From the NCBI GenBank assembly GCA_963764045.1, contig CAVXQW010000013.1, positions 40 through 64,039 on the forward strand: a stretch of 64,000 nt of DNA. The letters run 5' to 3'. This document shows positions 11,310 through 44,924 of this stretch, piece by piece. Position 1 is the first letter of the stretch. Each line of letters begins with the position of its first letter. Made by a program: the position numbers and the translations under genes. Source of the stretch: an uncultured bacterium (GTDB lineage: Bacteria; Desulfobacterota; Deferrimicrobia; Deferrimicrobiales; Deferrimicrobiaceae). A model generated the notes under the pieces. The model saw nothing but the letters and a program-made list of their open reading frames with translations, was not told the origin of the DNA and did not search any database.

Positions 11310-13006
11310 ATGGCGAACGTCTACCCCGAGGTTGTTTCCCCCCACGATTCCGAGTGGCGGGATTACATCCAGCGGGGATGCGAGCGGGGGGTCCAGGGCA
11401 GGATCATCGAATCGTGGCAGCGGTGCGGCCAGGTGGGCCTCAACCCGCATGAGCGGAATATCCCCGCCCCGATCGAGTCCACGCAGTTCAATAAGCGGAT
11501 GCAGGAGAACCTCGAGATCGTCGAGTTGTACCAGTTCTACATACGCCGCTTTTCCGGATTGCTCGAACAGCTGGGCGCATGCTCCTTCGTCTGCGATACC
11601 GACGGTTTTATCCTGGCGCGGGCGGGGTACGGCAAGGTGCTGAACTTCTTCGACAATTTCTCCCTCTCCGAAGGAAGTTCCTGCTGCGAAAAAGTGATCG
11701 GGACGAACGCTCCGAGCCTGGCCCTCATCACCCGCGAGCCGGTGGTGGTCACGGCCGACGAACATTACACGAAGACCTACCACCCCGCGTTCTGCGCCGC
11801 TTCGCCGATTCTCGATGTGAACCGCAATCTCCTCGGATGCGTGGATATAACGAAGTTCTTCGACCCCAACATCTCCGAGGAACTCCGGAAGCACCTCCTG
11901 AACCTGGCGATCTCCCTCTCCGACATGATCCGCAACGAGGTCTTTCTCGGGCGGCTCACGAAGTCTTCCCCCGTGTATCACCCGGCGTGGGGCGCAGCCC
12001 CCCGCGGACCCTCACGATCCTTCAAAAGGAGGCGTTCCGGACGACAAGCCGCGTCCCTCCTTTCGCCCGGATCGTCGGTTCGGCCCCGCCGCTCGCCAAA
12101 GCGATGCAGTCGGCGAGGATGTACGGCCGCAAGGAGGGGAACATCCTCATCCTCGGGGAGACCGGGACCGGGAAGGAGCTCTTCGCCCAGGCGATTCACA
12201 ATGAGGACCGGCGGGCGAACGGCCCTTTCGTGACGGTCAACTGCGCCGCGATTCCGCTGGAGCTGGCGGAGAGCGAGCTGTTCGGGTACGAGAGGGGATC
12301 GTTCACGGGTGCGAGGAACGAAGGCCACCCCGGGAAGTTCGAGATGGCCCACCAGGGGACGATCTTCCTCGACGAGATCAACTCGATGCCGCTGCCGATC
12401 CAGGCGAAGATCCTGCGCGTCGTGGAGACGAAACGGGTCACGCGGATCAACGGGAAGAGGGAGATCCCGGTCGATTTGCGAATCATCGCGGCGAGCAACC
12501 GGGTGCTGGCCGACGAGGTGGCCGCCGGAACGTTCCGCAAGGATCTCTTCTACCGGCTGAACGTCCTTCCGTTGCGGGTTCCCGCGCTGCGGGAGATGAA
12601 GGAGGACATCCCCGCCCTCCTCGACGCCTTCTTCCAGACGTGCGTGACGGAGCACGGCGTCTGCCGGAAACGGATTTCGCCGGAAGCGTTGCGGCACCTG
12701 GTCGCGTACGACTGGCCCGGCAATGTGCGGGAGCTGAAGAATTGCGCGGAGTACCTCTGTTTCACGGTGGAAACCGACGTGGTCGCGGAACACCACCTCC
12801 CCCCCGAGATCCTCGCCCGGAGGGTCGAGGCGCCCGAGCCGCCGGCGGCGCCGGAGGAGCCGAAGAACCTCGGGTCGCTCGAACGGACGTTCCTCATCGA
12901 GACGATGCACCGGTTCCACGGAAACGCGGTCGAGGCTGCGAAGTCGCTCGGGATCTCCCGGAGCACCTTGTACCGCAAGCTCAAGAAGTACGGGATCACG
13001 CCGTAG
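11310..13006 (+). pseudogene. sigma54-dependent transcriptional activator, AcoR-like (sensor + AAA+ + Fis HTH), one frameshift near 11980-12000
   Basis: AcoR-type N-terminus RIIESWQRCGQVGLNP.. and a GAF-like region in ORF 11310-12233. The AAA+ core ILILGETGTGKELFAQAIH..GSFTGA..GKFEMAHQGTIFLDEI, and RELKN and SLGISRSTLYRKLKKYGI, are in ORF 11579-13006. Confidence 0.85.
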
Positions 13007-13481
13007 CGGGATTCCTCCGGTAGAGGCCGCTCCTTCCGCCCTCCTTCGAGAGCAGGAAGACGTCCCCGATCGAGATCCCCCGGTCCGCCCCCTTGCACAT
13101 GTCGTAGATCGTGAGCGCGGCGACCGACGCCGAGACCATCGCCTCCATCTCCACGCCGGTCCGGTCGAACGCCTTCACGGTGCTCGTGATAACGACCGCC
13201 CCCCGCTCCCCGTCCACCTCGAATTCGACCGACGCCTCGGTGAGCGCGATCGGGTGTGCCAGCGGGATCAGGTCGCACGTCTTCTTCGCCGCGGTGATCC
13301 CCGCGATCCGGGCGATCCCGAGCACATCGCCCTTTTTCATTCCGGCGACCGTGATCGCGGCGACCGTCTCCTTCTTCATGAGGACCGTGGCGGTCGCAAC
13401 CGCCGTGCGGCGCGTCGGCTCCTTCGCCCCCACATCCACCATCACGGCCCGCCCGGCGTCGTCGAAATGATTGAACGGCAT
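12996..13481 (-). CDS. moaC: cyclic pyranopterin monophosphate synthase MoaC
   Basis: VMVDVGAKEPTRRTAVA..KGDVLGIARIAGITAAKKTCDLIPLAHP..TGVEMEAMVSASVAALTIYDMCK. Confidence 0.9.
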   Translation of the reverse strand: MPFNHFDDAGRAVMVDVGAKEPTRRTAVATATVLMKKETVAAITVAGMKKGDVLGIARIAGITAAKKTCDLIPLAHPIALTEASVEFEVDGERGAVVITSTVKAFDRTGVEMEAMVSASVAALTIYDMCKGADRGISIGDVFLLSKEGGRSGLYRRNPATA

Positions 13482-13618
13482 TGCCCCCTCCTAAGCGCTG
13501 CGTTTCATGACTTCGACTGCATTCGACCCGTCTTCATTTTGCCCCTCGTGCCAAACCGGGGGTACCCCGGGGAGCGCAATTCATACGGGAGTGGGGGCCC
13601 TCTCCCCTCCCCGCGCCC

Positions 13619-14086
13619 TCAGGAGATCCGCTCGATGGCGTCCCCGGGGGAAACCTTGCCGGGCCGGATGACCCGGGCGAAGATCCCTTCCCTCGGCATC
13701 ACGCAATCTCCCGCCTGGTGGTAGATGGCGCACCGGGTATGGCACTCCTTCCCGATCTGCGTCACCTCGAGAACCGCTTCCCCGATGCGGAACCGCGCCC
13801 CCACCGGAAGCGCCGTCAGGAGGATCCCCTCGGTGGTCACGTTCTCGGCGAAGTCGCCGGCCGACACCGAGAGCCCCTTTTGCCGCATCTTCTCGATACT
13901 CTCCGCCGCCAGCAGGCTCACCTGGCGGTGGCCGTCCCCGGCGTGGGCGTCCCCTCTCACACCGTGGTCCGCGACGAGCGCGACCGACGGGACCGGCTTC
14001 TTCCGCTCCCCTTTCCGCTCGCTCACGCAGACCGCGGTCACCCGCGCGCCCGATCCGCCCTCTTTCCGCCGATCCTCCACCGCCAC
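13619..14086 (-). CDS. MOSC-domain protein
   Basis: ADHGVRGDAHAG..RQVSLLAAESIEKM..FAENVTTEGI..EVTQIGKECHTRCAIY. Confidence 0.75.
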   Translation of the reverse strand: MAVEDRRKEGGSGARVTAVCVSERKGERKKPVPSVALVADHGVRGDAHAGDGHRQVSLLAAESIEKMRQKGLSVSAGDFAENVTTEGILLTALPVGARFRIGEAVLEVTQIGKECHTRCAIYHQAGDCVMPREGIFARVIRPGKVSPGDAIERIS

Positions 14087-14120
14087 CCTCTCCTTCTCCC
14101 GCCGCCGGCCCGCTTCCGGG

Positions 14121-15131
14121 TCAGGGGACGAGAACCGCGCGGAAGACGACCTTCCCCGCGCGCAACTTTCCGATCACTTCGTTCACCTTCCCCAGCGGGT
14201 GCCGCTCGACCACCGGGGCGATTCCGTGCTCCGCGGCAAACCGGAGCATCGCCTCCATGTCGTCCCGGGTGCCGGTCACCGAGCCCCGGATCGTCTTCTG
14301 CCCCTGGAGGAGGGCCGCGGGGACGAACGACGCGCTCTCCGCGACGGTTGCGAGGACCACGAGCGTCCCGTTCACGCCGAGGCCCGGGACGCACTGCTCG
14401 AATAGACGCGCGGAAGCCGCCGTGAGCAGGATCAGGTCGGCGCCCCCCATCGAGGAGAGCCGATTGGCGACCTTCTCCGTCCTGGAAAAGATTATCTCAC
14501 GGGCGCCCAGCCGCAGCACGAGATCGCCCCTCTCCTCCTCCTCGAGGATCGCGATGACCCGGGCCCCCATCGCGGACGCCATCCGCACCGCCAGGTGCCC
14601 GAGACCGCCGATCCCGGCGACGGCGACGGTCTTCCCGGCGATGTCCCCCGCCCTGCGCAGCGGCGCGAACACGGTGACCCCGGCGCAAAGGAGCGGGGCG
14701 GAATCGACGAGGTCGAGCGGATCCGGGATCCGGTGGACGAACGCCGCGGGCGCCTTCACGTACTCCGCATAGCCGCCGTCCACGGTAACCCCGGTCCCCC
14801 TCTGCGCCTCGCAGAGCATCTCGGCCCCTTCGCTGCACGACGCGCACTCCCCACAGGCGAACTGCATCCACGGGACGCCCACCCGGTCCCCGGGGATGAA
14901 TCCCTTCGCATCGGGACCGGCTACCTCGACGACCCCGGTCACTTCGTGCCCCGGTATGAACGGGGGCTTCGTACCCCACTGTCTCCACTCACCGTCGATC
15001 AGGTGGAGGTCGCTGTGGCAGACCCCGCACGCGCTCACGCGGATCAGAAGTTCGGCGGGGCCGGGGGAAGGCGCGGGAACCACCGAGAGGACGAGCGGCG
15101 ACCCGAACGCCTCGCAGACGGCGGCATTCAC
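14121..15131 (-). CDS. zinc-dependent alcohol dehydrogenase
   Basis: GVCHSDLH, GHEVTGVVEVG, structural-zinc Cys cluster CGECASCSEGAEMLC, and GIGGLGHLAV Rossmann motif. The start overlaps the moeA stop (ATGA). Confidence 0.85.
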   Translation of the reverse strand: MNAAVCEAFGSPLVLSVVPAPSPGPAELLIRVSACGVCHSDLHLIDGEWRQWGTKPPFIPGHEVTGVVEVAGPDAKGFIPGDRVGVPWMQFACGECASCSEGAEMLCEAQRGTGVTVDGGYAEYVKAPAAFVHRIPDPLDLVDSAPLLCAGVTVFAPLRRAGDIAGKTVAVAGIGGLGHLAVRMASAMGARVIAILEEEERGDLVLRLGAREIIFSRTEKVANRLSSMGGADLILLTAASARLFEQCVPGLGVNGTLVVLATVAESASFVPAALLQGQKTIRGSVTGTRDDMEAMLRFAAEHGIAPVVERHPLGKVNEVIGKLRAGKVVFRAVLVP

Positions 15132-16331
15132 GAGAGCGATTCCCCGAGCAGGAGAACATCCACCTTATCTCCCGCGGCGAAGGAGGTTCTGTCGGCCGGA
15201 AGAACCGCGAGGGCATCGGCGAGAACCATCGTCCGGAGGATCCCGGTGTTCTGGTCCCCGGCGGAAGAGGCGAAATATTCCCCGCCACGAACCTCGATCC
15301 CGACCCGAAGGAAGTTCACCTTCCCGGGTTTTTTCCGCACCTCTCCGGTGAGGGTCGCCTTGACCAGCGGCCGCACCACCCTTTTGCGCCCCATCATCCG
15401 GAGAAGCGCGGGCCGGACGAACGCCTCGAACGTGATCAGCGCGGACACCGGGTTCCCGGGGAGGGAGAAGACCGGCTTCCCGTCCTTCATCCCGAAGGCG
15501 GTCGGTCCGCCCGGCTTGATGTCGACCCGCAAGAAGCGGGAGGCGACCCCCCTCTCCGCCAGCACCTCCCGCACCAGGTCCCGGTCGCCCGCCGACACCC
15601 CGGCGGTGGTGACCAGGGCGTCCGCCTTCAACCCTTCGGAGATCTTTTCCGCGTGGCTTTCCAGGTCGTCGCGCGCGATGCCGAGGAGCACCGGCTTCCG
15701 CGCCCGCTTCCCGGACGGCGGCGGCGATCGCCACGCTGTTGCTGTTGATGATCATGCCGGGTGATGGCGTCTCGCCGAGCTCGATCAGCTCGTCGCCCGT
15801 GGAGAGCACCGCCACCCGGACCTTCCGGTAGACCGGGACGAACGCCTTCCCGAGCGAGGCCAGCATGCTGATCTCCGGCGGACGGAGAGGCGTCCCTTCC
15901 TGAAGGACCACCTCCCCCTCCCGCACGTCCTCCGCGCGGAACCGGATATGCTGACGGACCGTCACCCTCCCCTTCACGACGACGTGGCCGTCCGCCTCCT
16001 CCGTCTCCTCGATCGGGATCACCGCATCGCAGCCGGAAGGGGTTGGCGCGCCCGTCATGATCTTGACGGCGCATCCGGGCTGGACGGCGACCGACGCGGT
16101 TCCCCCCGCCGGGATGTACCCGGTGATCTTCAGGCGCGCCGGCCCGCGGCAATCGTCCGCCCGGACGGCATACCCGTCCATCGCGGAGTTGTCGCAGAAC
16201 GGGAGGGGCCACGGCGCGGCGACGTCCTCCGCGAGGGTCCTGCCCAGCGCCCGGCCGGTCTCGACCCGCTCGGTGCCCACCGGCGCGACGCTCTCCAGTA
16301 CGATGTTCCTGGCTTCCTCGTAGGTCGGCAT
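15128..16331 (-). pseudogene. moeA: molybdopterin molybdenum/tungsten transferase MoeA, one frameshift near 15690-15720
   Basis: N-terminal 2/3 in ORF 15165-16331 (FCDNSAMDGYAVRADD..IMTGAPTPSGCDAVIPIEE..VLSTGDEL). C-terminal third in ORF 15128-15691 (ALVTTAGVSAGDRDLV..PGGPTAFG..FSLPGNPVSALITFE). Confidence 0.85.
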
Positions 16332-16350
16332 GTGCGTCTTCCCCCGTTGG

Positions 16351-17025
16351 TTACGTCGGCGGCGGACCGTGAGAGGGGGCGATCCTTCCCCCTTCCAGCA
16401 CGATCGACCCGCCGTTGAGCCGGGCCGGATGGTCCGGGTCGTGCGTGGTCATCACGACCGTGGTCCCTCGCGAAGGGAGCGAGGCGATGACCGCCTCCAG
16501 CAGCCCGGCGGTCTCCCGGTCGATGTTCGCCAGCGGCTCGTCGAGGAGGAGAACCTCCGGGTCCACCGCCAGCGCGCGGGCCATCGCCACCCTTTGCGCT
16601 TCGCCGCCCGGAAAGCTCCCGGGCGTCGCGGTCGCGGAAACCATCCAGGCCCACCGTTTCCAGCGCCCGGTCCACCGCCCTCGGAGCCGCATCGCCCGCG
16701 ATCCCTCTCGCCTTCAGCCCGTACGCCACGTTCCGAACACCGTACCGCCGAAGAGGTACGGGGACTGGTGAAGCAGGGTCACCCTCCGGCGACGCCGCCT
16801 CACGATATCGCTCTTCCAGTCGATCCGCTCCCCCGCGTAGAAGATCTCCCCGGTGCTGGGGGGCGTCAGGAACGCGAGGATACCCAGCAGCGTGCTCTTC
16901 CCCGCGCCGTTGGCCCCCGTGAGGGTATACAGGCGGCCCGAGTCGATCGTCAGCGCGTCGATGTCGACCGCGACGTTCGATCCGTACCGCTTGGTGACCG
17001 ACCGGAGCCGGTACAGTTCGGTCAA
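16351..17025 (-). pseudogene. short ABC-transporter ATPase (TupC-like, no TOBE tail), two frameshifts
   Basis: Walker A TGANGAGKSTLL in ORF 16714-17025. The middle section is in ORF 16130-16729. The signature and Walker B FPGGEAQRVAMARALAVDPEVLLLDEP are in ORF 16351-16692. Confidence 0.7.
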
Positions 17026-17029
17026 GCGG

Positions 17030-17749
17030 CTACCTCCGCTGGAGGAGACTCAGGAACAGGTTGACGATCAGCGCAACGGTCATGAGAACGATCCCCAGCG
17101 CCATGCCGAACGAGAACTCCCCCTTGCTCGTCTCGAGCGCGATCGCCGTCGTCATCGTGCGGGTGTACCCGCGGATGTTCCCGCCGAGCATCATCGCCAC
17201 GCCCACCTCCGCGACGACCCGCCCGAAGCCCGCGATCACCGCGGCGAACACCCCGAACCGGATCTCCCCCATCAGCGTGGCCACCGTGCGGAACGGCCCG
17301 GCTCCCAGCGTGAGCGCCGTGGGGAGGATCCGCGGGTCCGCCCCCCGGACCGACGCGAAGGTGTAGTTCGCCACGATCGGGGAGGCGAGCAACGTGCCTC
17401 CGATCACGATCGCCGTGGGAGTGAAGAGCAGCCCCAGCGCCCCCAGCGGACCTTGCCGGCTCAGGAACCCGTAGACGAGGAGACCCACCACCACCGTCGG
17501 GACCGCCATGAGCGTGTTCAGCGCCGGTGACGACGAACCCTTTCCCACGGAAGTCGGAGAGCCCGACGGCAAGGCCCACCGGGACGCCGAAGAGAGCGGC
17601 GAAGACCGTCGCCCCCGCGGAGACCGACAGGGAGGTGCCCACCGCATCGACCACATCCGGGGAGAACGACCCGATCAGGCGCAGGGCCGCGGCGAAAGGA
17701 GGAAAAGAGGAAATCCAACCGGCGGCCCCGCGGCGATTCAGTTCAACAT
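17030..17749 (-). pseudogene. ABC-transporter permease (TupB/ModB-like oxyanion type), frameshifted
   Basis: ORF 17030-17656 has ALNTLMAVPTVVVGLLVY..LTLGAGPFRTVATLMGEIRFG..ALETSKGEF. The N-terminal FAAALRLIGSFSPDVVDAVGTSLSVS is in other frames. The candidate ATG at 17749 lies 5 nt after the modE stop. The start is uncertain. Confidence 0.6.
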
Positions 17750-17753
17750 CGCG

Positions 17754-18520
17754 TCAGGCATCGAGGCCAAGGATCACGCTGGACGCCTTGACCAGAGCGC
17801 AAACATGGTCGCCGATTTCCAGTTTCAAGGTTTTCGCGCTCTCCTCGGTCACGATCGCCGTCAACACGCTCCCGCCTTCCAGGGACACAGACACCTCGGC
17901 GTTCACCGGCCCGTGCACGACACGGCTCACCGTCCCGCACAACAGGTTCCGGGCGCTGACCTTCGCGTTGTGGAGGTCCTTCCCCAGAATCACGGCGCTC
18001 GCCTTGAAGAAGGCGTACGCCTCCACCCCGGGCTTGAGGCCAAGGACCGCGGCGCTCTCGTTCGTGATGACCGCGCAGAGGGTCTCCCCCCCTTCAACCC
18101 GACGGTGACCTCCGTGCTGACGGCGCCTTTGCGGACCTCTTTCACCTTGCCCAGAAACACGTTCCTCGCGCTGACACGCATGGCGACCCTCCGAAGCAGG
18201 GAGTAGAGGCGACCCACATCCCCGAGACGCCCCTCGAGACGCCCGATAAACTTTTGATGCTCGCCCTGCAGGACGCGGTACAGCCGGACCGTTTCTTTCC
18301 CCTCTTCCGTAAGCATTGTACCACCGCCGCCGACGCCCCCCGCCGCTCGGTGGACGAGAGGTCTTTCCGAGGCGTTGTTCATCGCGTCCACGGCGTCCCA
18401 GGCGGTCTTGTAGCTGATCCCGACCTCGCGGGCCGCGCCGCTGATCGACCCGCGCCGGTCGATCGCCTCCAGCAGCCCGATCCGATTCCCCCCGACAAAC
18501 GCCCGGTCCGCCCGCCGCAT
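17754..18520 (-). pseudogene. modE: ModE-like molybdate/tungstate-responsive regulator (HTH + two Mop/TOBE domains), one frameshift near 18030-18090
   Basis: IGLLEAIDRRGSISGAAREVGISYKTAWDAVDAMNN in ORF 17990-18520. The first TOBE domain MRVSARNVFLGKVKEV.. and the second VSARNLLCGTVSRVVHGPVNAEVSV (ORF 17754-18026) follow. Confidence 0.8.
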
Positions 18521-18684
18521 GGAGAGGGTCGCCGCGATCGATACGACTCCATCCGCCCCGCGTGACGTCGAACGCCGGGCACCGGAAGCGCGTGTTCCGC
18601 CGTGCTTCCCCTTAATTTTTTCTCCCCTCCCGGTTCCACGTTTTGTGCCTGCGGTGCGTTTGGTACTTACTATATAACGGTTGC

Positions 18685-18709
18685 AAAAAAAAATCCCGCC
18701 CGGGTCGGG
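18685..18709 (-). terminator. rho-independent terminator after the aor-moaD-thiF unit
   Basis: On the minus strand a GC-rich hairpin CCCGACCCGGGCGGG (18695-18709) abuts the thiF-like stop. It is followed by A plus a T9 run (18685-18693). Confidence 0.5.
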
Positions 18710-19561: not shown

Positions 19562-19562
19562 A

Positions 19563-19790
19563 TCATCCCCCGCCTACCAGGGGGAAGATGGCGACGGTGT
19601 CGCCGTCCGCCAGTTCCCGCATCCGCTCCGCGTGGCGGCCGTTGACCAGGAGGATCCCGATCTCGCTTTCCGGCAGCCGCGCATCTTCGACGACCTTCGA
19701 CACCGTCGACCCCGGGGGAACGATCCGGATTTCCATGTCGAACCGCCCTTTGCGGAACGTCGCGAACAGCTTCACCGTAACCCGCATCAC
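19563..19790 (-). CDS. MoaD/ThiS-family sulfur-carrier protein (C-terminal GG)
   Basis: 75 aa, beta-grasp-like MRVTVKLFATFR.. ending ..DTVAIFPLVGGG. Confidence 0.75.
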   Translation of the reverse strand: MMRVTVKLFATFRKGRFDMEIRIVPPGSTVSKVVEDARLPESEIGILLVNGRHAERMRELADGDTVAIFPLVGGG

Positions 19791-19833
19791 CCCTCCACCG
19801 CCGCGATGTGACGCCGCCAGGTCCCCTCCCTCG

Positions 19834-34173: not shown

Positions 34174-34180
34174 CGCTCCT

Positions 34181-35670: not shown

Positions 35671-35685
35671 GCAAACTTCGTTCCA
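35671..35685 (-). promoter_or_regulatory. sigma54 (-24/-12)-like promoter upstream of the DUF1329 operon
   Basis: The minus strand reads TGGAACGAAGTTTGC (GG-N10-GC). It lies about 110 nt upstream of ATG 35563. Confidence 0.5.
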
Positions 35686-36606: not shown

Positions 36607-38338
36607 GGACGTCTTCCTCCAAAGTCCGCGTTTCGTCGGCGCAGACGCGAAGGAACGATTTGTACGCACCCCGTTGCCGCATCAATTCCCCGTGCGTCCC
36701 AAGGTGGCTGATCCGCCCGCCCGAAAGGACCACGATCAGATCCGCATCCCGGACGGCGTGGATCCGATGGGTCACGATCAAGGTCGTCTTCCCCTCCATC
36801 AACTCCGCGATCGCGCGCCGGACACGATCTTCCGAGAGGAGGTCGAGGGAGGAAGTCGCCTCGTCGAGGATGAGGATCTCCGGAGCGCGGAGGAACGCCC
36901 GGGCAAGAGCCACCCGCTGCCGCTGCCCCGCGGAAAGGGATAACCCCCGCTCTCCGACGATGGTCGAAAGGCCGAGCGGCAGGGAGCGGACGAACTCCGT
37001 CAAGTCGGCGTTCGCGACGGCATCGGCGATCCGCGCGGGGCCGGCGTCGGGTGTCCCGTACCGGATGTTCTCCTCGAGGGTCCCTTGAAAAAGGTACGGC
37101 TCGGTGGAGACCTGTGCGATCCGCCGCCGGAGCGTGGCGCGGCGAAGCCGCCCCAACGGGACTCCGTCAAGCCGGATCTCCCCCCCTTGCGGCTCGTAGT
37201 AGCGGAGGAGAAGGTCCACGAGCGTCGATTTTCCGACGCCGCTCTCCCCGACGAGCGCCACCGTCTTTCCGGCGGGGAGGGTCAGCGACAGGCGGTCGAG
37301 GATACGGGCCTCGCCGCCGTACGCGAAGACGACCCCGTCAAAGACGATCCCCTCCTTCAGGGAGACGAACTCTTCCGCCCCTTCCGGGTCCTTCTCCACG
37401 GGAACGTCGAAAAACTCGAACACGCGCGCAAGCGAAGCCCTCCCTTTCCGCAACGCCGCGTACTGTCCAAGGAGGTTCTGGATCGGCGCGATCACCTGCA
37501 TCTGGAAGGCGGTAAATGCCACAAGGGTCCCGACGGAGATCGCCCCGTCCCGGACCATCGAGCCGCCGTAGAGGAAAGCGAGCGTGGCCGAGCACCCCAG
37601 CACGAACGAGGGGATCCCGCGGGACAGGGAGAAGATCGTCTGGAACCGGAGAACGGAGGCCACCAGCGACAGGTTCTCCTCCTCGAACCTTCGCCGTTCC
37701 TGGCATTCCGTGGCGCTGGAACGCACCAGTCGTATTCCCGTGAAGGTATCGATGATGCGGGTCCCCACGGCGGCGTTCTTCTCCCGGAGCTCGCGGCTCA
37801 TTCCCGTGATGACGTTGCGGGTCAGCCAGAGGCCCAGCACGCCCAACGGGACGAGGACGTTGCTCACGAGGAAGAGGGACCAGGACATGGCGACGAGGAT
37901 GGCGGAGGCGACGACGAGCCGGACGGAGCTGGTGACGAAGGCCATCGGGACGTCCACGAGAATCCCCTGGACCTCCACCATGTCGTTGTTGAGCCGCGCG
38001 ACGATCTCCCCTACCCGCGTCCGCCCGAAGAATCGCATCTCGGCGCGCTCCAGATGATCGAAGAGGGCGACCCGCATGGCGACGAGGATCTTCGCAGACC
38101 CTCGCGTGTAGAGGTAGCTGCTGACGCCGCCGAGGACCATCCCCGCGGCGGCGAAAAGAACCATGGTGAGGAGAAGGGGGGGCAGCGCCGCCCAGTTTCC
38201 GCGCAGGATCACGTCGTCCACCAGCCTCTTCGACAGGAAAGGGGCGTACAGGGAAGCCGCCGTCGCGAGAAGGGACAGTGCGAAGGTCGCGGCGAGAATT
38301 CCCCGCTGGGGCCGAACGAATCTCCACAAAGAGACCAT
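36599..38338 (-). CDS. qhpF: ABC exporter, fused TMD-NBD (QhpF-like peptide exporter)
   Basis: 579 aa starting at ATG 38338 (MVSLWRFVRPQRGIL..). Six-TM exporter domain followed by GESGVGKSTL, LSAGQRQRVALARA and ILILDEATSSLD. The longer ORF 36599-39274 is an antisense read-through. Confidence 0.85.
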   Translation of the reverse strand: MVSLWRFVRPQRGILAATFALSLLATAASLYAPFLSKRLVDDVILRGNWAALPPLLLTMVLFAAAGMVLGGVSSYLYTRGSAKILVAMRVALFDHLERAEMRFFGRTRVGEIVARLNNDMVEVQGILVDVPMAFVTSSVRLVVASAILVAMSWSLFLVSNVLVPLGVLGLWLTRNVITGMSRELREKNAAVGTRIIDTFTGIRLVRSSATECQERRRFEEENLSLVASVLRFQTIFSLSRGIPSFVLGCSATLAFLYGGSMVRDGAISVGTLVAFTAFQMQVIAPIQNLLGQYAALRKGRASLARVFEFFDVPVEKDPEGAEEFVSLKEGIVFDGVVFAYGGEARILDRLSLTLPAGKTVALVGESGVGKSTLVDLLLRYYEPQGGEIRLDGVPLGRLRRATLRRRIAQVSTEPYLFQGTLEENIRYGTPDAGPARIADAVANADLTEFVRSLPLGLSTIVGERGLSLSAGQRQRVALARAFLRAPEILILDEATSSLDLLSEDRVRRAIAELMEGKTTLIVTHRIHAVRDADLIVVLSGGRISHLGTHGELMRQRGAYKSFLRVCADETRTLEEDVRA

Positions 38339-38346
38339 CCGCTTTC

Positions 38347-39369
38347 TCACGACGCCTCCTCCCGGTAGTAGCACATGTAGCGCGCGTCGCAGAACTTCGG
38401 CGTTTTCCGGAGCGCAACAGCCTTGGACGCCGCCTCTTCCCGGGAGGCCCCCCGTTCCACCAGGTCGAGGACCCCGCGAACCATCTGGAGGCCCACGAGC
38501 TTCCGGTAACTCGAGGCGCCGCGTCCGGAGATCTTGATGGAAGTCACTCCCGTGCGGGCGAGGTCGAAGAGCGCGCAGAGCCCGCAGGGGCCGTTCGGGA
38601 TCCCGTCGGGAGTGACCGAATTGCCGCAACCGTTCTGGAACCAGACCCAATCCTTGAACGCGCCCATCAGTTCCCGCGCCCGTTCCTCTTCCTCCCCGGT
38701 CAGGGATCCCTCGGGCTCTTCTCCCAGCGGAAGGAAACGGTGCGGGACGCCCGGGAGCTGCACGCAAAGGGCGCCGACGCTCCGGTGCGTGGTCATGCAG
38801 TACCCTTCCTCGAACACGCACCCTTCGTTCATGACGAACGCTTCCGTCTCCAGCCGGCCCGCCGCCGCATCGCAAAGGGACGCGATGTCCGCCACGCCGA
38901 GACTGCGGGGGAAGATCACCCGACGGACCCCCAGCTCCTCGAGGAAATCGACCATGCCGGGGTTGAGCGCCGCCATCACCGAGCTGGCGTGGACGGAAAG
39001 CGCGGGGAAGGCGCACCGCAGCGCCACGAGGAAGCCCATGTCGGAGACGATGACGCCATCGATGCCGGATTCCCGCGCGAGCCCGCCGATCATGGGCAGG
39101 AGAAGGTCCTGCTGCTCCGGCGTGTAGTAGGGGGCATTGAACGTCACGTGGACGGGGATGCCGAAGGCGTGGGACCGCTCGGTCAGGAGAGAGACGTCGT
39201 CCCGTTGAACGAGGTTCCCCGCCACCGGCCCCCTTCGGTTGAGCCAGAAGGCGCCGCCGTACCGCTTGAGCCACTCGGGGGGGACGTACCCGCAGAAGAA
39301 CTCGCCCGCACCGTTCCCGGCAAGCATCTCCACCTCGTCGGGGTGGCTGACCGGTACGGTGAGCTTCAT
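38347..39369 (-). CDS. U32-family Fe-S protein, UbiU-like
   Basis: MKLTVPVSHPDEVEMLAGNGAGEFFCG.., GIDGVIVSDMGFL, VIFPRSL, Cys pattern EGCVFEEGYC..GALC..GPCGLC, SIKISGRGAS. ATG 39369 overlaps the upstream U32 stop (ATGA). 8 nt separate it from qhpF. Confidence 0.75.
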   Translation of the reverse strand: MKLTVPVSHPDEVEMLAGNGAGEFFCGYVPPEWLKRYGGAFWLNRRGPVAGNLVQRDDVSLLTERSHAFGIPVHVTFNAPYYTPEQQDLLLPMIGGLARESGIDGVIVSDMGFLVALRCAFPALSVHASSVMAALNPGMVDFLEELGVRRVIFPRSLGVADIASLCDAAAGRLETEAFVMNEGCVFEEGYCMTTHRSVGALCVQLPGVPHRFLPLGEEPEGSLTGEEEERARELMGAFKDWVWFQNGCGNSVTPDGIPNGPCGLCALFDLARTGVTSIKISGRGASSYRKLVGLQMVRGVLDLVERGASREEAASKAVALRKTPKFCDARYMCYYREEAS

Positions 39370-40436
39370 CCCGTCGCCCGATCCCCCATGGCCGACATCC
39401 ATGGATGGCTTCCTGCCGGGGCGGGCAGGGATGCCCCGGCTTCCGTGGCCCCGGGCGGAACGGTAATGACGATCCGGTCCACCCGCCGGGAGGAGGAAAT
39501 CCGCCCCAGGATGCTCCCGGTGACGGAGGACGGAACCGCGTGGTAATACGCGTTCCCGAGGTTCAGGAGGTCTTTCTCCGCCCCGTTCCCCCCGGGAACG
39601 GGCAGGCGGAACTCGACGGCGTACTTCCGGCACTCCGACCGGCAAGGAGTGCCGGGGACGAATTTTGCGGCGGATTCCTGGTGCATCGCCCCCAACAGGC
39701 AGGCGCGCCCCATGGTGACGAACAGGTACGGAACGTGAACCGACAGCCTCTCGGACCGGCTCTCCCACTCGTCCGCCTCGAGCGGCTGGAGGAACGGATC
39801 GATTTCCCGGCGCCCGATGCCGTACCGCTCCATCAGGGCCCGGAAACCCGGTGCGAGCTCCCCAGACCGGCAGAGGGCCGCCCGGGCAGACGCCGGCGCC
39901 TGCGGGGAATCGAAATATTCCGCGAGCCGCGGGTCGCGCAGCATCTTGTGCGTCAGGCGGCCCAGGACGATCACGAGCTTCGGGTGGCGGGACCTCAGGC
40001 GGTGGACCGTCCCCCAGTCGCCGGCGACGACCTCGAAGCCCTCCACTCCTTCCAGCGTCCGGACCGCTTTTTCCGCCTTGGCCAGGCCGTCCCGCGACAG
40101 CGGCGGCAGGACGAGGGATAAGGCGACCCGCCCCGCCTGCGCCGCCACGACCCAGGAGCGGATCGCCTTCCCCGTCGGGAGGAGCTGCTCACACGTCTCG
40201 CTGCCGACGTACACCCGCGACGGAACGGCCCCGGGGAGGTGCCGGGGGAACGTTTCCGCGAGCATGGCGCGAATATCGGGCGTCACGGCGGCGCGCAGCG
40301 TCTCGTCAAGGGAGACCTCCCCGCGAAGAACCGAGGGCAGCGGGCCGGCGAGAAAGGGGAAGGAGATCCCCACTTCCACGCCGTGTTCCGCGCCCCCCCG
40401 CGGAGACGCCTCCCGGTGATGCCGGTTCGGGAGCAA
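39366..40436 (-). CDS. U32-family Fe-S protein, UbiV-like
   Basis: RVYVGSETCEQLLP, FEVVAGDWGTVHRL, LFVTMGRACLLG..GTPCRSECRKY (C..C-x19-C-x3-C), LLNLGNAYYH. The true start may be an internal GTG near 40379. The ORF start lies 13 nt downstream of the qhpB stop. Confidence 0.7.
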   Translation of the reverse strand: MLPNRHHREASPRGGAEHGVEVGISFPFLAGPLPSVLRGEVSLDETLRAAVTPDIRAMLAETFPRHLPGAVPSRVYVGSETCEQLLPTGKAIRSWVVAAQAGRVALSLVLPPLSRDGLAKAEKAVRTLEGVEGFEVVAGDWGTVHRLRSRHPKLVIVLGRLTHKMLRDPRLAEYFDSPQAPASARAALCRSGELAPGFRALMERYGIGRREIDPFLQPLEADEWESRSERLSVHVPYLFVTMGRACLLGAMHQESAAKFVPGTPCRSECRKYAVEFRLPVPGGNGAEKDLLNLGNAYYHAVPSSVTGSILGRISSSRRVDRIVITVPPGATEAGASLPAPAGSHPWMSAMGDRATG

Positions 40437-40449
40437 GCGGCCGGGCCCC

Positions 40450-41532
40450 CTACCGATGCTGGACGCGGAAGTGCGTGAGGACCGCGTCCCCGGGGGTACT
40501 GATGTGCTTCAGCAGCTTCATCGTTCCCGTGTCGTAGATCAGGATCGAGTCGCCGCCGCCGCCCAGGTACACCTTCTTCCCGTCGGAGCTGATCTGGATC
40601 GTGTAGTAGCTCTTGTCGACGTCGGCGGTGGCCAGCAACTCGTTCGTCGCGAAGTCCCTCTTCTCGACCTTGTTGAGCACCGTGTAGTAATACTTCCGGT
40701 CGGGGGAGACGACCGCCGAGAACTGGTTGTAGAGAGGACCGATGTCGGTCACGAGCCGCATCGACCCTTCCGTGCTCTTCTTCCTGAGGTCGATGGTGTA
40801 GTACCCCTGGTACGTGAGGTTGTTCGAGGTGTTCAGGCTGCCGACCAGGATCATCGCCATCCCGGACTGGTCGTAAAGCCGCCAGATGTTCAGGGAGATC
40901 TGCGGGTCGACGCCGGTCGTGGTCGGGTGGGCAAGCCCGAGGAAGTTCACCCGCTTCCCCGTCATGGGGTCGTAGACGAAGACGTCGCGCCCCGTGATAT
41001 AGAACTCGCTCCCGTCGTAGCCGAAGAAGATGTTCGTGCAGCCGCGCGGGACCTCGATCTCCTTGACGACCTTCGGAGGATCGACCCCGACGTCGAATAC
41101 GATCACTTCGGGCGTCATGTCGACGATCTCGTCCGAAAGCCACCGCTGCCGCAGGGAGAGGGCGTAAAGAAGGTTTGGGTGCGCCGGGTTGATCTCGATG
41201 TCGAGGGCCCGGACCTTGACGTCGCCCGATCCGGTGCGGAACGTGCGGACCACCTTCTTCCCCGCCAGGTCGAGCTGCTCGATCTGCTGCCCCCAGTCGG
41301 TGATGGTGAAGATCTTGTCGAGGTCCCTCGGGTCCCAGGTGAAATTGGTGACCTTCTTCCCCTTGGTTTCGATCGTGGCGACGATCTCGTCCTTGTCGCC
41401 GTCGATGACGTTGAACTTGTTGTGGAGCATCCCCTGCAGGAGGATGTCCTTGCCGAGTGCCGGGGCGTTGCCCGAGGCGAGGAGCAGGGCCGTCCCGAGC
41501 AGCACCAACGCGAAAAAGGCCGTTCTCTTCAT
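40450..41532 (-). CDS. qhpB: quinohemoprotein amine dehydrogenase beta subunit (7-bladed propeller)
   Basis: Signal peptide MKRTAFFALVLLGTALLLASG, size about 360 aa, repeated blade-like segments, and its position after qhpC. The assignment rests mainly on context plus family resemblance. Confidence 0.7.
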   Translation of the reverse strand: MKRTAFFALVLLGTALLLASGNAPALGKDILLQGMLHNKFNVIDGDKDEIVATIETKGKKVTNFTWDPRDLDKIFTITDWGQQIEQLDLAGKKVVRTFRTGSGDVKVRALDIEINPAHPNLLYALSLRQRWLSDEIVDMTPEVIVFDVGVDPPKVVKEIEVPRGCTNIFFGYDGSEFYITGRDVFVYDPMTGKRVNFLGLAHPTTTGVDPQISLNIWRLYDQSGMAMILVGSLNTSNNLTYQGYYTIDLRKKSTEGSMRLVTDIGPLYNQFSAVVSPDRKYYYTVLNKVEKRDFATNELLATADVDKSYYTIQISSDGKKVYLGGGGDSILIYDTGTMKLLKHISTPGDAVLTHFRVQHR

Positions 41533-41585
41533 CGTATCGTTCCCTCCGTGGGATTATTCCGTGTCATGCGCCGCACCGCGGCTTC

Positions 41586-41909
41586 CTACCACTCCGGCTT
41601 GACGACCTTGAGCTTCATCCAGTCCTTCATCGCCCGGGTGCAGTCGGCGTTCCAGTCCGGGTTGTTGTACGTGTCCGGCGCCTGTCCGGGCCACCAGCAG
41701 TACATGTCGGTGGTGCCGAAGAGATCCGTCTCGATCGGCGTGCAGAGCTGTTTCGTGGAGCCGGTCCAGTCGATCTCGTACCCGGGGTTGAACACGGACG
41801 TGCAGGTGTGCATGAACGGGATGCTCCCCTGCGCCTCCACGACCGGGAGTTCCGCCTTTCCCTTTTCGATCTTCTTCCCCTTGCGGTTGACCCCTTTCAG
41901 GTGCTTCAT
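41586..41909 (-). CDS. qhpC: quinohemoprotein amine dehydrogenase gamma-subunit precursor (RiPP-like, CTQ-bearing)
   Basis: 107 aa with a Lys-rich leader MKHLKGVNRKGKKIEKGKAELPVVEAQG. The core CTSVFNPGYEIDW..QLCTPIETDLFGTTDMYCWWPGQAPD matches the CTTSFDPGWEVD..LCQPMEADLYGC.DPCWWPAQV.D pattern. ATGA overlap with qhpD. Confidence 0.85.
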   Translation of the reverse strand: MKHLKGVNRKGKKIEKGKAELPVVEAQGSIPFMHTCTSVFNPGYEIDWTGSTKQLCTPIETDLFGTTDMYCWWPGQAPDTYNNPDWNADCTRAMKDWMKLKVVKPEW

Positions 41910-43321
41910 GCGATCCCCCTTTCGCCGAGCACGGCATCGAGAAACGTCGGCGTTTCGTTTTGTATGCGAACGTAGGTCCGAAGGCCCAGAAGGAACAGCT
42001 CCTTGATCCAGCGGCAATAGTGCGTCGAAGGGGCGAAGAGGTCTCCCTGCCGGAGGTACGCGTCGTGGTAGCACCCCCCGGCGCAGAAGTTCTTCGCCCA
42101 GCAGGCGTCGCATCCGGACTCGCGTCGACGCCTCGCCCCGTCGAGGAACCGGGCGCGGGCATCCGAAGCGATCCCGCGGGACGGGTCGCCCATGGATTCT
42201 CCGACCCCGCAGAGCCGGTGGCACGGGTAGAGAACCCCCGAGGGGTCGGCGGCCAGCATCCCGATCCCCGCCCCGCACGGGTACGGCATCGGGTCCCCGC
42301 GGTGGATCAACCCGAGGATCTGCGTCATGTTCGAGAACGCCGGCATCCGGCGTTCCCGCACGTCGTCGACGTATTCCACGGCCAGATCCCGGAACCCGTC
42401 CAGCACCGCGTCGAGCTCTTCCCCGGTGAGCGCGGTGCGGCTCCCCTCCTTGGCGCTTGCCGGGGCGAATCCCACCTCGTCGAACCCGATGTCCCGGAGG
42501 TGCCGGAACGTCGTTCGCACGTCGACGCCGCCGCTCCCCAGGGTGACGCGCGCCGCCAGCGGATACCCGCCCCGGTTTTCCATCAAGTGCGCTATCCCTC
42601 GCTTCACGTCGTCGTAGGAGCCGCGCCCCGTCGCGTAGGGGCGATTGACGTCGTGAACCTCGCGGGGGCCGTCGACGCTGACGCACACGGAGACGCGGTT
42701 CTCCTTAAGGAACCGCGCGATCTCCGCGGTCAGGAGCGTACCGTTGGTCGTGAGGGAAAAGGAGATCTCCTTCCCTCTAGCCTTGGCCATCGCTCGCGCT
42801 TCGTGAACCGCGACCCGCAGGAGGGGGAAACGGAGGAGCGGCTCCCCCCCGAAGAGGACGACGGACACCTTCCTGACCTCCCCGGAATGGTCGAGCAGGA
42901 ACCCGACGCTCTCGCGGAGCGACTCCGGGGACATCTCCCCCGGCTCCCCTCCCCCGTCCACCGGCGGGACGCACCCTTCCTCGCGGTCCTCGTAGCAGTA
43001 GCGGCACGCGAGGTTGCAGGAGGTCGTCAGCATCAGGACGAGCGTCCGGAGCCGCAAGGGAGGATGGGTGGGCCGGAAAGCCGGCCCGTGTCCCTCGGCG
43101 GGTTCCAGAAGTCGCGCCCGGCGAAGATCCGACAGGATCTCCGCCGGCACGGCGCCGGGATCGGACGATGCAAGGGCGGACAAGGCATCCCGCGCCCCGT
43201 CGTCCATCCGGAACAGTCCCCCGGATTCCGCCGCGTAGAGATACGTCTCCCCTTCCGCCGTGAAACTGCGGTGCGGGAGAAGAGCCGCTTCGACGCCGGA
43301 CCTTCGCGCGATGTTTCCCAT
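41906..43321 (-). CDS. qhpD: radical-SAM/SPASM thioether-forming enzyme QhpD
   Basis: MLTTSCNLACRYCYE, FGGEPLL, and SPASM Cys cluster PCGAGIG..YPCHRLC..GCDACWAKNFCAGGCYH..YCRW. Confidence 0.85.
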   Translation of the reverse strand: MGNIARRSGVEAALLPHRSFTAEGETYLYAAESGGLFRMDDGARDALSALASSDPGAVPAEILSDLRRARLLEPAEGHGPAFRPTHPPLRLRTLVLMLTTSCNLACRYCYEDREEGCVPPVDGGGEPGEMSPESLRESVGFLLDHSGEVRKVSVVLFGGEPLLRFPLLRVAVHEARAMAKARGKEISFSLTTNGTLLTAEIARFLKENRVSVCVSVDGPREVHDVNRPYATGRGSYDDVKRGIAHLMENRGGYPLAARVTLGSGGVDVRTTFRHLRDIGFDEVGFAPASAKEGSRTALTGEELDAVLDGFRDLAVEYVDDVRERRMPAFSNMTQILGLIHRGDPMPYPCGAGIGMLAADPSGVLYPCHRLCGVGESMGDPSRGIASDARARFLDGARRRRESGCDACWAKNFCAGGCYHDAYLRQGDLFAPSTHYCRWIKELFLLGLRTYVRIQNETPTFLDAVLGERGIA

Positions 43322-43337
43322 GGGGTCCGCGCGCCCC

Positions 43338-44924
43338 TTACTGGACCGGCCTCTGGACGTACAGAGGGATGGTGGCGAGCAGATAGCCGCGGGCGGACAG
43401 CGTCCCGCCGCCGGGCGCGGCCCAGGAGGCCGTCACCCAGACGTCCCCCATGTTGTTTTCCTGCATGGCCCGTTTCGGGTTGGGGCCTTCGTTCCCCGGG
43501 GTGAAGAGCCCGTTTCCGTCGATCGTCCCGACGAACTCCACGTCGTGGTCCTCGTTGGAACTCGCAAGCTCCACGACGTTCCACGCCGCCGGGACGCGGC
43601 CGATCTCGATGTCGTCCGCGGTGCCCGCGGCGCCGTCGGCGCCCTTGCTGCAGGCCATGGCGTCGAACTGGACGAGCTGCTTCACGGCGTACCCCAGCCC
43701 TCCGGTGCGGGACATCGCGGGGGACGGAACCACCTTGATGTAGTCGACGGCAGTGTAGACCGCGAAGAGCTTGTCTGCCGCAGCGTTCCCGGCTTTTGCG
43801 TTCCGGTACCCAGAGGGGGCCTTGTCGGCGACGTCCACGGTGACCACAACCTTCGTCGGCGTCGCGGAAACGACCTTATTGACGGTCACCCCGTCGCCCA
43901 GGCTCACCTCTTTCGAAAGGCCGGTCCCGACGACCGTCACGGTGGCACCCTTCGTCCCGGCCCGGAGGGCCTTCGGCATCACGGAGAGGATCCTCGGGGA
44001 GCTCCCTGCGAAGGCGCGGGTTTCAACGCCGCGCAGCTCGAAGTGCGGGTCGTCGAACCGGACCCCGGTGAAGGTCGAACCGTCCATGGAGATGTGGAAG
44101 ACTTCGCGGATCGGCTTCCCGGCCAGGGTGCCGGAAGCCCGCCAGGCGTAGCCGCCGTAGAGGGTCGCCTTCCCCTCGATCGGCTGCTTCTCCCCGTTCT
44201 CGAACTCCACCGTTCCGGCGTAGGAATAGAAGGGCTCACCCGTCTTCTTCAACTGGATCTCGCCACTGTACGCGCCTTTCCCGGCCTGGTACCCGGCAAC
44301 GACCCACTTCCCCTCGCCCGCCTTCGGGCGGGAGGAGACCCACTGCTTCCATTCCGGAGTCTCCAGCGGGAACCGTTTCTGCAACTCCTTCACGCAGGCG
44401 GCGAGCGTTTCGTCCCAGTCGAGGACGTCCTGGAGCTGGTAGAGCCACATCGGAAGGACGCCCGAGTGCATGTTGGCGAGTTTCGGCCAGTCTTCCGGGG
44501 CGCGGCGCTGGAGGGCGGTCTTCGCGTAGCTGTGGCACCGCACGCACACGTCGATGATCAACTGGCTGTCGACCTTCTCCTTGGTGTCCCGCTTCTCGAG
44601 GGTGTAGGCGTACGGCGCCACCTCGGCGGGGGCCAGCCCCTGCTTGTCGGAGAAGTAGAGGAGGAGCGATTCCTTCTCCTCCTTGGTGATCGACAGCCCG
44701 TGGATCCGTTTATGGCGCCACAACGTCTCTTCCCACGCTTCCGGCACCTGCCGGAGGTAGGAGATCCTGGAGACGAGTCCCCCGTTGTTCTTGTGGCAGT
44801 CGGTGCACATCTTCAATACCAGGTCGCTGGTGACCGGGATCCCCGTCTCGCCGAGGGCCGCCCACGCCGTCGCCAGCATGAACGCCAGGCCAACGATAAA
44901 ACACAATCCCATCTTCCTTCGCAT
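43338..44924 (-). CDS. qhpA: quinohemoprotein amine dehydrogenase alpha subunit (dihaem cytochrome c + beta domains)
   Basis: Signal peptide, two haem sites CTDCH and CVRCH in the N-terminal about 170 aa, then three beta-sandwich-like domains. 528 aa. Confidence 0.85.
   Translation of the reverse strand: MRRKMGLCFIVGLAFMLATAWAALGETGIPVTSDLVLKMCTDCHKNNGGLVSRISYLRQVPEAWEETLWRHKRIHGLSITKEEKESLLLYFSDKQGLAPAEVAPYAYTLEKRDTKEKVDSQLIIDVCVRCHSYAKTALQRRAPEDWPKLANMHSGVLPMWLYQLQDVLDWDETLAACVKELQKRFPLETPEWKQWVSSRPKAGEGKWVVAGYQAGKGAYSGEIQLKKTGEPFYSYAGTVEFENGEKQPIEGKATLYGGYAWRASGTLAGKPIREVFHISMDGSTFTGVRFDDPHFELRGVETRAFAGSSPRILSVMPKALRAGTKGATVTVVGTGLSKEVSLGDGVTVNKVVSATPTKVVVTVDVADKAPSGYRNAKAGNAAADKLFAVYTAVDYIKVVPSPAMSRTGGLGYAVKQLVQFDAMACSKGADGAAGTADDIEIGRVPAAWNVVELASSNEDHDVEFVGTIDGNGLFTPGNEGPNPKRAMQENNMGDVWVTASWAAPGGGTLSARGYLLATIPLYVQRPVQ

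Follow-up and report, generated by a model that had tools for sequence, protein, structure and literature searches.

We analysed a 64,000-nt stretch of DNA (hereafter the window), which is nearly all of contig C13 in a Candidatus Deferrimicrobium (MBNT15) metagenome-assembled genome. The genome bin (G000) comprises 2.73 Mb in 18 contigs, is 75% complete, and has a G+C content of 65%. The host is an uncultured sediment bacterium; for its lineage, MBNT15, iron reduction and a facultatively anaerobic way of life have been predicted (PMC9386147). Our subject is a locus of three modules: the genes for quinohemoprotein amine dehydrogenase (QHNDH; qhp genes; module 1, 35868–44924, minus strand); envelope genes with an acyl-CoA synthetase and two family III CoA-transferases (module 2, 24443–35563, minus strand); and an aldehyde:ferredoxin oxidoreductase (AOR) with its cofactor-supply cassette (module 3, 12996–24411). 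A preliminary description had proposed these modules, and all of the genes that it named were found at or near their proposed positions using Pfam and NCBIfam. Our reading of the sequence is that this is a modular, sigma-54-controlled locus for the oxygen-independent oxidation of a primary amine, to which we would assign a probability of about 0.6. That QHNDH is coupled to an aldehyde oxidiser is highly probable, and this is the step that the comparison with relatives mainly supports.

Gene content of the three modules

Because DNA of high G+C content yields many false open reading frames (ORFs), genes were called from codon-position G+C together with domain searches (Pfam, NCBIfam). Two ORFs were rejected as wrong-frame artefacts of this kind. 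At 41554–42162 the true gene is qhpC, and the Pfam gamma-subunit model had no match to the overlapping wrong-frame ORF at E 0.01. At 21736–22878 the true gene is moaA, on the opposite strand.

The order of module 1 is qhpA-D-C-B, UbiV-like gene, U32 gene, ABC exporter gene and S8 protease gene, all on the minus strand. The product of qhpA (43338–44924) matched TIGR03908 with 462 bits (cut-off 274), and has four Pfam alpha-subunit domains, a signal peptide and two CXXCH motifs. The gamma subunit gene qhpC (41586–41909) matched NF037958 over its full length (94 bits, cut-off 50). For the radical SAM maturase gene qhpD (41906–43321) and the beta-propeller subunit gene qhpB (40450–41532), the top-scoring families were TIGR03906 (396 bits, cut-off 453) and TIGR03907 (127 bits, cut-off 223); both genes are correctly placed, and both scores are below the equivalog cut-offs. 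They are followed by the UbiV-like partner gene (39366–40436; no Pfam match, a four-cysteine pattern and a weak fold match), the gene of a UbiU-like U32 Fe-S protein (38347–39369; Pfam Peptidase_U32, 103 bits), a qhpF-like ABC exporter gene (36599–38350; ABC_membrane, ABC_tran) and a qhpE-like S8 protease gene (35868–36606), in which Peptidase_S8 is found in two frames with one extra base near 36239. Thus, the locus is predicted to encode an exported, periplasmic QHNDH (QhpABC) with two haem motifs, together with the maturation proteins QhpD, QhpF-like and QhpE-like.

We compared this operon with the canonical qhpADCBEFGR operon of Paracoccus denitrificans and Pseudomonas putida. The alpha, gamma and beta subunits, QhpD, the QhpE-like subtilisin, the QhpF-like exporter and the A-D-C-B order are common to both. 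However, the canonical operon has the flavin monooxygenase QhpG, and the window operon contains no gene for it; the UbiV-like/UbiU-like U32 pair stands in its place. The window beta subunit and QhpD also differ from the canonical qhp families in falling below the NCBIfam equivalog cut-offs.

In module 3, the central gene encodes a single-subunit AOR (19834–21570, minus strand; AFOR_N 191 bits, AFOR_C 259 bits). Its start is the ATG at 21570, which has a ribosome-binding site and corrects the ORF start at 21696. Against solved structures, the AOR scored 309 bits with 9mqx, 255 with 1aor and 246 with 8c0z (9g7j was within 245–309), compared with 149 for FOR, 76 for WOR5 and 68 for BamB. The predicted enzyme belongs with the true AORs, not with FOR, WOR5 or BamB. 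When it was aligned to 1AOR, the pterin/Fe-S ligand positions E..H, D..G.D and D..G.C were conserved. The Fe-S triad (window 20680–20720, residues ~296–304) has the spacing CX3CX3C (C-HRG-C-VIQ-C), as against CX2CX3C in Pyrococcus AOR. Tungsten is the putative metal of this AOR, as suggested by a TupB-like permease and by a maturase related to the "tungsten cofactor oxidoreductase radical SAM maturase". No gene for an AorA ferredoxin-like or AorC FAD subunit is located beside the AOR gene, whose neighbours are the MoaD-like and MoeB-like genes and the divergent moaA.

The cassette continues on the minus strand with genes for a MoaD/ThiS-like sulfur carrier (19563–19790; Pfam ThiS 41 bits), a MoeB/ThiF-like adenylyltransferase (18710–19561; Pfam ThiF 184 bits) and a ModE-like regulator with a helix-turn-helix (HTH) and two TOBE domains (17754–18520; HTH_1 and TOBE in two frames, with a base missing in a G run near 18086). 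Next come a TupB-like permease (17030–17656; NCBIfam TupB 160 bits, ABC_perm1 195 bits), a TupC-like ATPase (16351–17025; ABC_tran in two pieces, with indels near 16609 and 16736) and MoeA (15128–16331; MoeA_N, MoCF_biosynth and MoeA_C over two frames, with an extra base near 15692 relative to the related genome G021). The last three genes encode an Ahr-like zinc-dependent alcohol dehydrogenase (Zn-ADH) or aldehyde reductase (14121–15131; ADH_N, ADH_zinc_N; NCBIfam Ahr 273 bits, under the cut-off of 470), a MOSC-domain protein (13619–14086; Pfam MOSC; NCBIfam MoaC/MOSC, C-terminal part, 200 bits) and MoaC, the cyclic pyranopterin monophosphate synthase (12996–13481; Pfam MoaC 173 bits). Divergent from the AOR gene, the plus strand carries moaA (22096–23103; TIGR02666 352 bits, cut-off 284) and a radical SAM/SPASM metalloenzyme maturase gene (23110–24411; TIGR04311 651 bits, W_rSAM_matur 230 bits).

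A similar cassette is found in Geobacter, in the order AOR, small protein, MoaD/ThiS, MoeB/ThiF, TupABC, MoeA, MoaC. The accessory genes of the window have nearly the same order, the MoaD/ThiS and MoeB/ThiF pair follows the AOR gene in both, and a sigma-54 activator is near the cassette in G. pelophilus as it is in the window. Unlike the Geobacter cassettes, the window cassette lacks both the TupA binding protein and the 200-aa gene that comes after AOR; it adds moaA, the TIGR04311 maturase, ModE, Zn-ADH and MOSC, and it is placed beside qhp. No binding-protein gene for the TupBC transporter (16351–17656) was found at the locus; the Geobacter cassettes carry one (locus L102, 13773–14582). A second MoeA-TupBC copy is located on contig C2, with 84–85% identity. 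The genome also has two tandem AOR paralogues in pieces (G000:C14:59585–63726), 45–50% identical to the window AOR, and a third (C7:75866–77431), 34% identical, which is kept in nearly all members of the genus.

Module 2 begins with four envelope genes on the minus strand: DUF1329 (34181–35563), DUF1302 (32395–34173), RND/MMPL (29902–32279; two extra bases, near 30933 and 31550) and BNR/Ycf48-like (28838–29905). The Pfam scores of DUF1302, DUF1329, BNR/COG4447 and RND were 449, 387, 67 and 49 bits, respectively, and all four families are encoded together. The same four families make up AmeABCD of Castellaniella defragrans, which is associated with the catabolism of hydrophobic compounds (PMC6394551), and DUF1302/DUF1329/BNR/RND genes show cofitness in Pseudomonas (bioRxiv 2020.07.04.188060). 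The window module shares the four families with these systems, both of which are tied to hydrophobic compounds. However, its gene order differs from theirs, and it is linked to an amine dehydrogenase.

Downstream of the envelope genes, an AMP-forming acyl-CoA synthetase is encoded at 27176–28783 (minus strand; Pfam AMP-binding, AMP-binding_C). It scored 584 bits against NCBIfam MbcS, under the cut-off of 850, and its closest solved relatives are Methanosarcina Macs (3etc, 496 bits) and human ACSM2A (428 bits). The synthetase is thus of the predicted medium-chain (Macs/ACSM) type, and these relatives point to a medium-chain aliphatic, branched or small aromatic acid as substrate. The two CoA-transferase genes follow on the same strand: CoAT1 (25840–27174; Pfam CoA_transf_3, 375 bits) and CoAT2 (24443–25811), whose CoA_transf_3 domain is split by one extra base near 25396 relative to two relatives, and is full length once the two frames, or the intact orthologue, are read. 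Neither transferase reaches a named NCBIfam equivalog; their top solved relatives (SUGCT, formyl-CoA transferase, YfdE and BbsEF) are distant, at 130–150 bits. We also considered that they might be alpha-methylacyl-CoA racemases, which would suit a 2-methylbutyrate-type synthetase, and rejected this because there was no racemase among the solved relatives. Since the two paralogues are adjacent, they may form a heteromer.

An aromatic or dicarboxylic substrate had been proposed from the paired transferases. Nothing was found in its favour, and the synthetase is nearest to medium-chain (2-methylbutyrate/ACSM) enzymes. A partial parallel for the combination of enzymes is Geobacter metallireducens, in which a benzoate-CoA ligase reportedly operates in parallel to a family III succinyl-CoA:benzoate CoA-transferase (Oberender et al. 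2012). In both systems, one acid would have two routes to its CoA ester, through a ligase that consumes ATP and through a family III transferase that saves it; unlike the benzoate system, the window has two adjacent transferase paralogues, which suggests a heteromer like BbsEF.

Linkage of qhp and aldehyde oxidiser genes in relatives

We then compared the locus within Deferrimicrobium. The AOR cassette is present in G000, G013 and G021. In G013, the stretch covered contains only the tail from U32 to qhpE together with the complete envelope module, the synthetase and the transferases, and its gene order equals that of the window from the U32 gene to ModE. G021 has the qhp genes, the envelope module and the transferases, and its synthetase was not detected. 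In G009, AOR lies directly after the envelope module and is accompanied by a NAD-type aldehyde dehydrogenase (ALDH) gene (L086, 5604–7076). G024 (L088, 7550–9082) and G004 (L104, 2105–3589) have all the other components of the window locus (qhp and envelope genes, synthetase and transferases) with an ALDH gene (Pfam Aldedh, 573 bits); G007 has the qhp, envelope and transferase genes, no synthetase, and an ALDH (L103, 11374–12894) that is 91% identical to that of G024. These last three genomes lack an AOR orthologue, and their ALDH gene adjoins the same sigma-54 activator.

Thus, an aldehyde oxidiser (AOR, ALDH at the same place, or both) was found in all seven traceable qhp loci of the genus. 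Judged from gene content and position, the AOR cassette and the NAD-type ALDH are non-orthologous genes that replace each other at one locus in sister species. In 8/8 Deferrimicrobium loci examined, qhp is followed by the envelope module. CoA-transferases were present in six of the seven qhp loci, and the synthetase in four. The genes that the preliminary description had grouped as module 2 are therefore present as described, but the grouping holds only in part, because the envelope genes travel with qhp and not with the synthetase.

Outside the genus, QhpA homologues with 31–36% identity were detected in 15 of the 401 genomes in a sample of the phylum. We searched ten distant Desulfobacterota qhp genomes for an AOR domain near qhpA; two had qhpA on short contigs and eight could be assessed. 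In four of the eight (G243, G413, G064 and G318), AOR lies within 8 kb of qhp on the same strand. With 4–15 AOR paralogues per 4–6 Mb, an AOR within 10 kb would be expected by chance in ~3–5% of genomes.

In G243 (41% G+C), an AOR gene whose product is 65% identical to the window AOR lies directly upstream of qhpA and is co-oriented with it. The order on one strand (L098, G243:C3:2812000–2831999) is AOR-qhpA-D-C-B-NapC/NirT tetrahaem cytochrome-porin-like-UbiV-like-U32-exporter-protease, and a divergent sigma-54 response regulator gene is located upstream. This cluster has the appearance of a full gene set for respiratory amine oxidation, including a path for electrons into the quinone pool. 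In G413 and G064 (70–71% G+C), AOR lies between the exporter and protease genes, and a sigma-54 activator is found upstream; in G318, the AOR domain is 7 kb downstream on the same strand, at coordinates that fit the arrangement of G413 and G064. QHNDH and AOR are therefore joined in three architectures, namely these two distant arrangements and the adjacent-operon form of Deferrimicrobium.

To examine regulation, the sigma-54 −24/−12 consensus was scanned with at most one mismatch over the 64 kb. Three matches were found against 0.82 expected (3 of 100 shuffles reached three), and each of them lies on the coding (minus) strand at a distance of 63–107 nt ahead of the gene that opens its module. 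The motif of the qhp operon (44987–45002, TGGAACGGGAATTGCT) is 63 nt upstream of qhpA and is conserved in 6/7 relatives. The second (35670–35685, TGGAACGAAGTTTGCT) is 107 nt upstream of the DUF1329 start and is conserved in six relatives; the synthetase/transferase unit, which has the same orientation, is probably co-transcribed from it. The third (21638–21653, CGGCACAGGTATTGCT, one mismatch) is 68 nt upstream of the AOR start and is identical or nearly so at the equivalent site in G013, G021 and G009. The genome encodes rpoN.

A gene for a GAF-domain sigma-54 enhancer-binding protein with AcoR-like architecture (Sigma54_activat, AAA_lid_14, HTH_8) flanks the locus on the plus strand (11310–13006), with a frameshift near 12010–12060. 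Its orthologues in G021 and G024 are intact, with 560–565 aa and a GAF domain. The activator keeps its place next to the locus both in genomes with AOR and in those with ALDH.

The U32 pair and the oxygen question

The absence of a QhpG gene from the operon bears on how the quinone cofactor is made. In the assembled part of the genome (75%), a search for FAD_binding_3 monooxygenases gave no such enzyme, only ~30-residue matches to the dinucleotide motif. The U32 gene is translationally coupled with its UbiV-like partner gene, and the pair occupies the QhpG position. It is also kept in qhp operons of other phyla, including that of Aneurinibacillus thermoaerophilus; Aneurinibacillus is an aerobic genus.

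In ubiquinone biosynthesis, UbiU-UbiV carries out an O2-independent hydroxylation that depends on prephenate (PMC6747719; PMC10990095). Like it, the window pair consists of two genes, for a U32 protein and a partner, and has a four-cysteine pattern in which the first cysteine of the partner is far upstream. Homologues of the partner have four invariant cysteines, CXnCX18CX3C, compared with CXnCX12CX3C in UbiV, where the first cysteine is likewise far upstream (PMC6747719). However, the sequence similarity between the two systems is very low, and none is detectable for the partner. The U32 protein scored 64 bits against the NCBIfam UbiU model (cut-off 440). In sequence comparison the partner had no match to the neighbouring U32 protein, the PDB or NCBIfam, and the top fold match of its low-confidence model (pLDDT 61) was the U32 peptidase 5D88. 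The label UbiV-like thus denotes a resemblance, which consists only of the cysteine pattern and the low-confidence fold match. The two systems differ further in that UbiU-UbiV acts on a lipid quinone and the target of the window pair would be a protein tryptophan, and the occurrence of the window-type pair in A. thermoaerophilus is also counted as a difference. That the quinone cofactor is formed by the U32 pair in an O2-independent way has, in our estimate, about even odds. The pair may serve other targets too, because a UbiV-like/U32 pair without adjoining qhp genes is present at L097 (8647–10650), beside a Tricorn/PD40 fragment and mobile-element genes.

It had been proposed that the whole pathway needs no O2 in catalysis and, if the idea on the U32 pair holds, none in maturation. 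The chemistry of QHNDH, AOR, the synthetase and the transferases uses none, and this part of the proposal fits the Fe-S, radical SAM and tungsten content of the locus. However, the genome encodes two haem-copper oxidases and one bd oxidase, and the host is therefore not an obligate anaerobe. The locus is suited to anoxic or micro-oxic life.

Proposed pathway and alternative explanations

In the proposed pathway, QHNDH would oxidise the amine in the periplasm to an aldehyde and ammonium, passing the electrons to c-type cytochromes. The aldehyde would then enter the cell, where AOR would oxidise it to the acid with ferredoxin as acceptor, and Zn-ADH could act as an overflow valve or as an entry point for alcohols. 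The synthetase and a probably heteromeric, ATP-saving CoA-transferase would turn the acid into its CoA ester. The AmeABCD-like envelope module may handle a hydrophobic substrate or the toxic aldehyde. All three operons would be switched on via sigma-54, perhaps by the flanking GAF-type activator.

This chemistry is known from Aromatoleum aromaticum. In strain EbN1, two QHNDH isoenzymes are reported to start anaerobic aromatic amine degradation (Schmitt et al. 2019, J Bacteriol 201:e00281-19), and phenylacetaldehyde/benzaldehyde dehydrogenases and a tungsten AOR follow QHNDH (Debnar-Daumler et al. 2014; PMC10413684). The A. aromaticum AOR acts in parallel to the aldehyde dehydrogenases, which are NAD-dependent, and is able to substitute for them (PMC10413684). 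The reactions, all O2-free, would be the same in the window, from periplasmic QHNDH through the aldehyde and the acid (AOR and/or ALDH) to CoA activation, and the parallel use of AOR and ALDH is mirrored by their exchange between Deferrimicrobium sister species. However, the A. aromaticum enzyme is a three-subunit, NAD-reducing AorABC filament, and the window AOR is of the single-subunit Geobacter type. The window genes are clustered under sigma-54 promoters, and some Desulfobacterota have them in one operon. The window host is also an uncultured iron reducer from a different phylum. We found no paper describing qhp-AOR gene clusters in the full-text literature on QHNDH and ferredoxin oxidoreductases, a search whose coverage did not extend to subscription journals. 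What would be new is the tight and recurring qhp-AOR gene linkage, a genomic variant of a known pathway.

Biogenic amines are abundant in anoxic soils and sediments, where they arise from protein decay. What has been worked out about their anaerobic oxidation comes, to our knowledge, essentially from a single organism. A qhp gene set next to AOR or ALDH under sigma-54 may be a genomic marker for amine-oxidising iron and sulfate reducers, and the clusters also show how AOR and NAD-type ALDH are exchanged at one locus between sister species. In a broader and more tentative reading, which we hold to be possible with the odds somewhat against it, QHNDH, tungsten AOR and the U32 Fe-S pair would form a conserved anaerobic "amine respiration" unit of Desulfobacterota-type bacteria. 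No NAD-dependent aldehyde dehydrogenase would be needed in it, and the O2-free synthesis of cysteine tryptophylquinone (CTQ) would be the work of UbiUV-like hydroxylases, possibly dependent on prephenate, with a protein tryptophan as their target. Such a synthesis of CTQ, if true, would be without precedent as an oxygen-independent origin of a protein-derived quinone cofactor; and if the respiration unit is true, biogenic amines would be direct electron donors for iron, sulfate or nitrate respiration. Cultivable Desulfobacterota with AOR inside the operon could serve as test systems for both the pathway and oxygen-free cofactor biogenesis.

Several observations weigh against a single oxygen-independent pathway. 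The three modules had been described as one route from amine to acyl-CoA. Synteny in relatives bears out the segment from amine to acid, because qhp recurs with AOR or ALDH in every traceable qhp locus of the genus and AOR is found in or next to some distant qhp operons. The segment from acid to acyl-CoA is only plausible: the synthetase/transferase unit is separable, occurring alone in G011 (which has neither qhp and envelope genes nor an aldehyde oxidiser) and being absent from G009 (which has qhp and AOR). Its link to qhp-AOR was seen only in Deferrimicrobium, and no synthetase or family III transferase was present in the three distant loci of G243, G413 and G064. The transferases may also act on a different, later intermediate than the synthetase. 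That the synthetase and transferases act on the acid from this aldehyde is therefore conceivable at slightly less than even odds. In addition, four of the eight assessable distant genomes have no AOR near qhp, the oxygen reductases of the genome mean that an anaerobic role is not forced on the predicted pathway, and eight genes of the assembly are frameshifted. A shared activator site upstream of the three sigma-54 promoters was not found, where there were only short, unconvincing similarities and unrelated hairpins, and control by one activator is thus only a proposal.

Part of this evidence could be caused by a chance association, in which the modules are independent neighbours in a variable hot spot. 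The qhp genes would then provide ammonium or electrons, the AOR-ADH genes would be a general alcohol/aldehyde module, the synthetase and transferases would serve imported acids, and the adjacency would be an accident of insertion. Presence and absence do vary module by module in the genus, and the solitary unit of G011 and the lack of a common activator site are in accord with this explanation. Geobacter AOR cassettes, whose AORs are 75–78% identical to that of the window, stand without qhp nearby, which shows that the modules are separable and suggests a mobile, self-contained unit. However, AOR has been recruited into qhp operons in differing gene orders in distant families, ALDH takes over the position of AOR while the neighbouring activator stays the same, and all three operons have sigma-54 promoters; we therefore consider independent neighbours unlikely. 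It is also distinctly unlikely that AOR and Zn-ADH are mainly reductive or detoxifying, turning surplus aldehyde into alcohol, or acids into alcohols with low-potential ferredoxin. An Ahr-like aldehyde reductase does lie inside the AOR operon, and AORs, by one description, serve chiefly to detoxify excess aldehyde and can also reduce acids (PMC10413684). However, sister genomes replace AOR by NAD-type ALDH, which is an oxidative enzyme, and an acid-activating synthetase and transferases are encoded next door.

Finally, the frameshifts could be real and the locus in decay, with a pathway that has ceased to work in this strain. Within 34 kb, single-base indels (at least nine) interrupt eight genes (qhpE, CoA-transferase 2, RND (twice), MoeA, ModE, TupC and the flanking sigma-54 activator), as judged by alignment to relatives that are intact at those sites, and TupB is probably hit by an indel as well. 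However, the alignments showed these indels, at short homopolymers, as the sole lesions, with no stop mutations, deletions or elevated divergence, and the indel-bearing genes have 85–93% identity to intact orthologues. The gene for haem-copper oxidase subunit I on another contig (G000:C7:89711–91019), a housekeeping gene, is likewise in two frames, and frameshift fragmentation is even greater in the related G021 assembly of 8 contigs (the present one has 18 long contigs). The near-duplicate contigs C12 and C13 differ by 11 gaps per 10 kb. For these reasons, the indels are probably errors of long-read assembly rather than gene decay, and a decaying locus is very unlikely. Contig C12 (615–21701) repeats window positions 43900–64000 with 87–98% identity, beginning in the middle of qhpA, so that for that region two related strains or species are represented in the bin.

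The rest of the window was also inspected. An Rfam scan of the window gave no match to RNA families, and no extension of the pathway was seen in the flanks, which contain AsmA, OmpA, Kdp, Liv-type ABC transporter and PEPCK genes. The Liv-type transporter operon (branched-chain amino acid family) is located at 52797–57617, 8 kb from qhpA, and no link between it and the amine locus was seen in relatives. In the other flank, the ORF at 6053–6928 combines C-terminal sequence of a short-chain dehydrogenase with N-terminal sequence of a DUF815 ATPase, and the following ORF covers a fragment of a Mo enzyme of the sulfite-oxidase type; this region looks like a rearrangement, a chimeric join or a site of further frameshifts.

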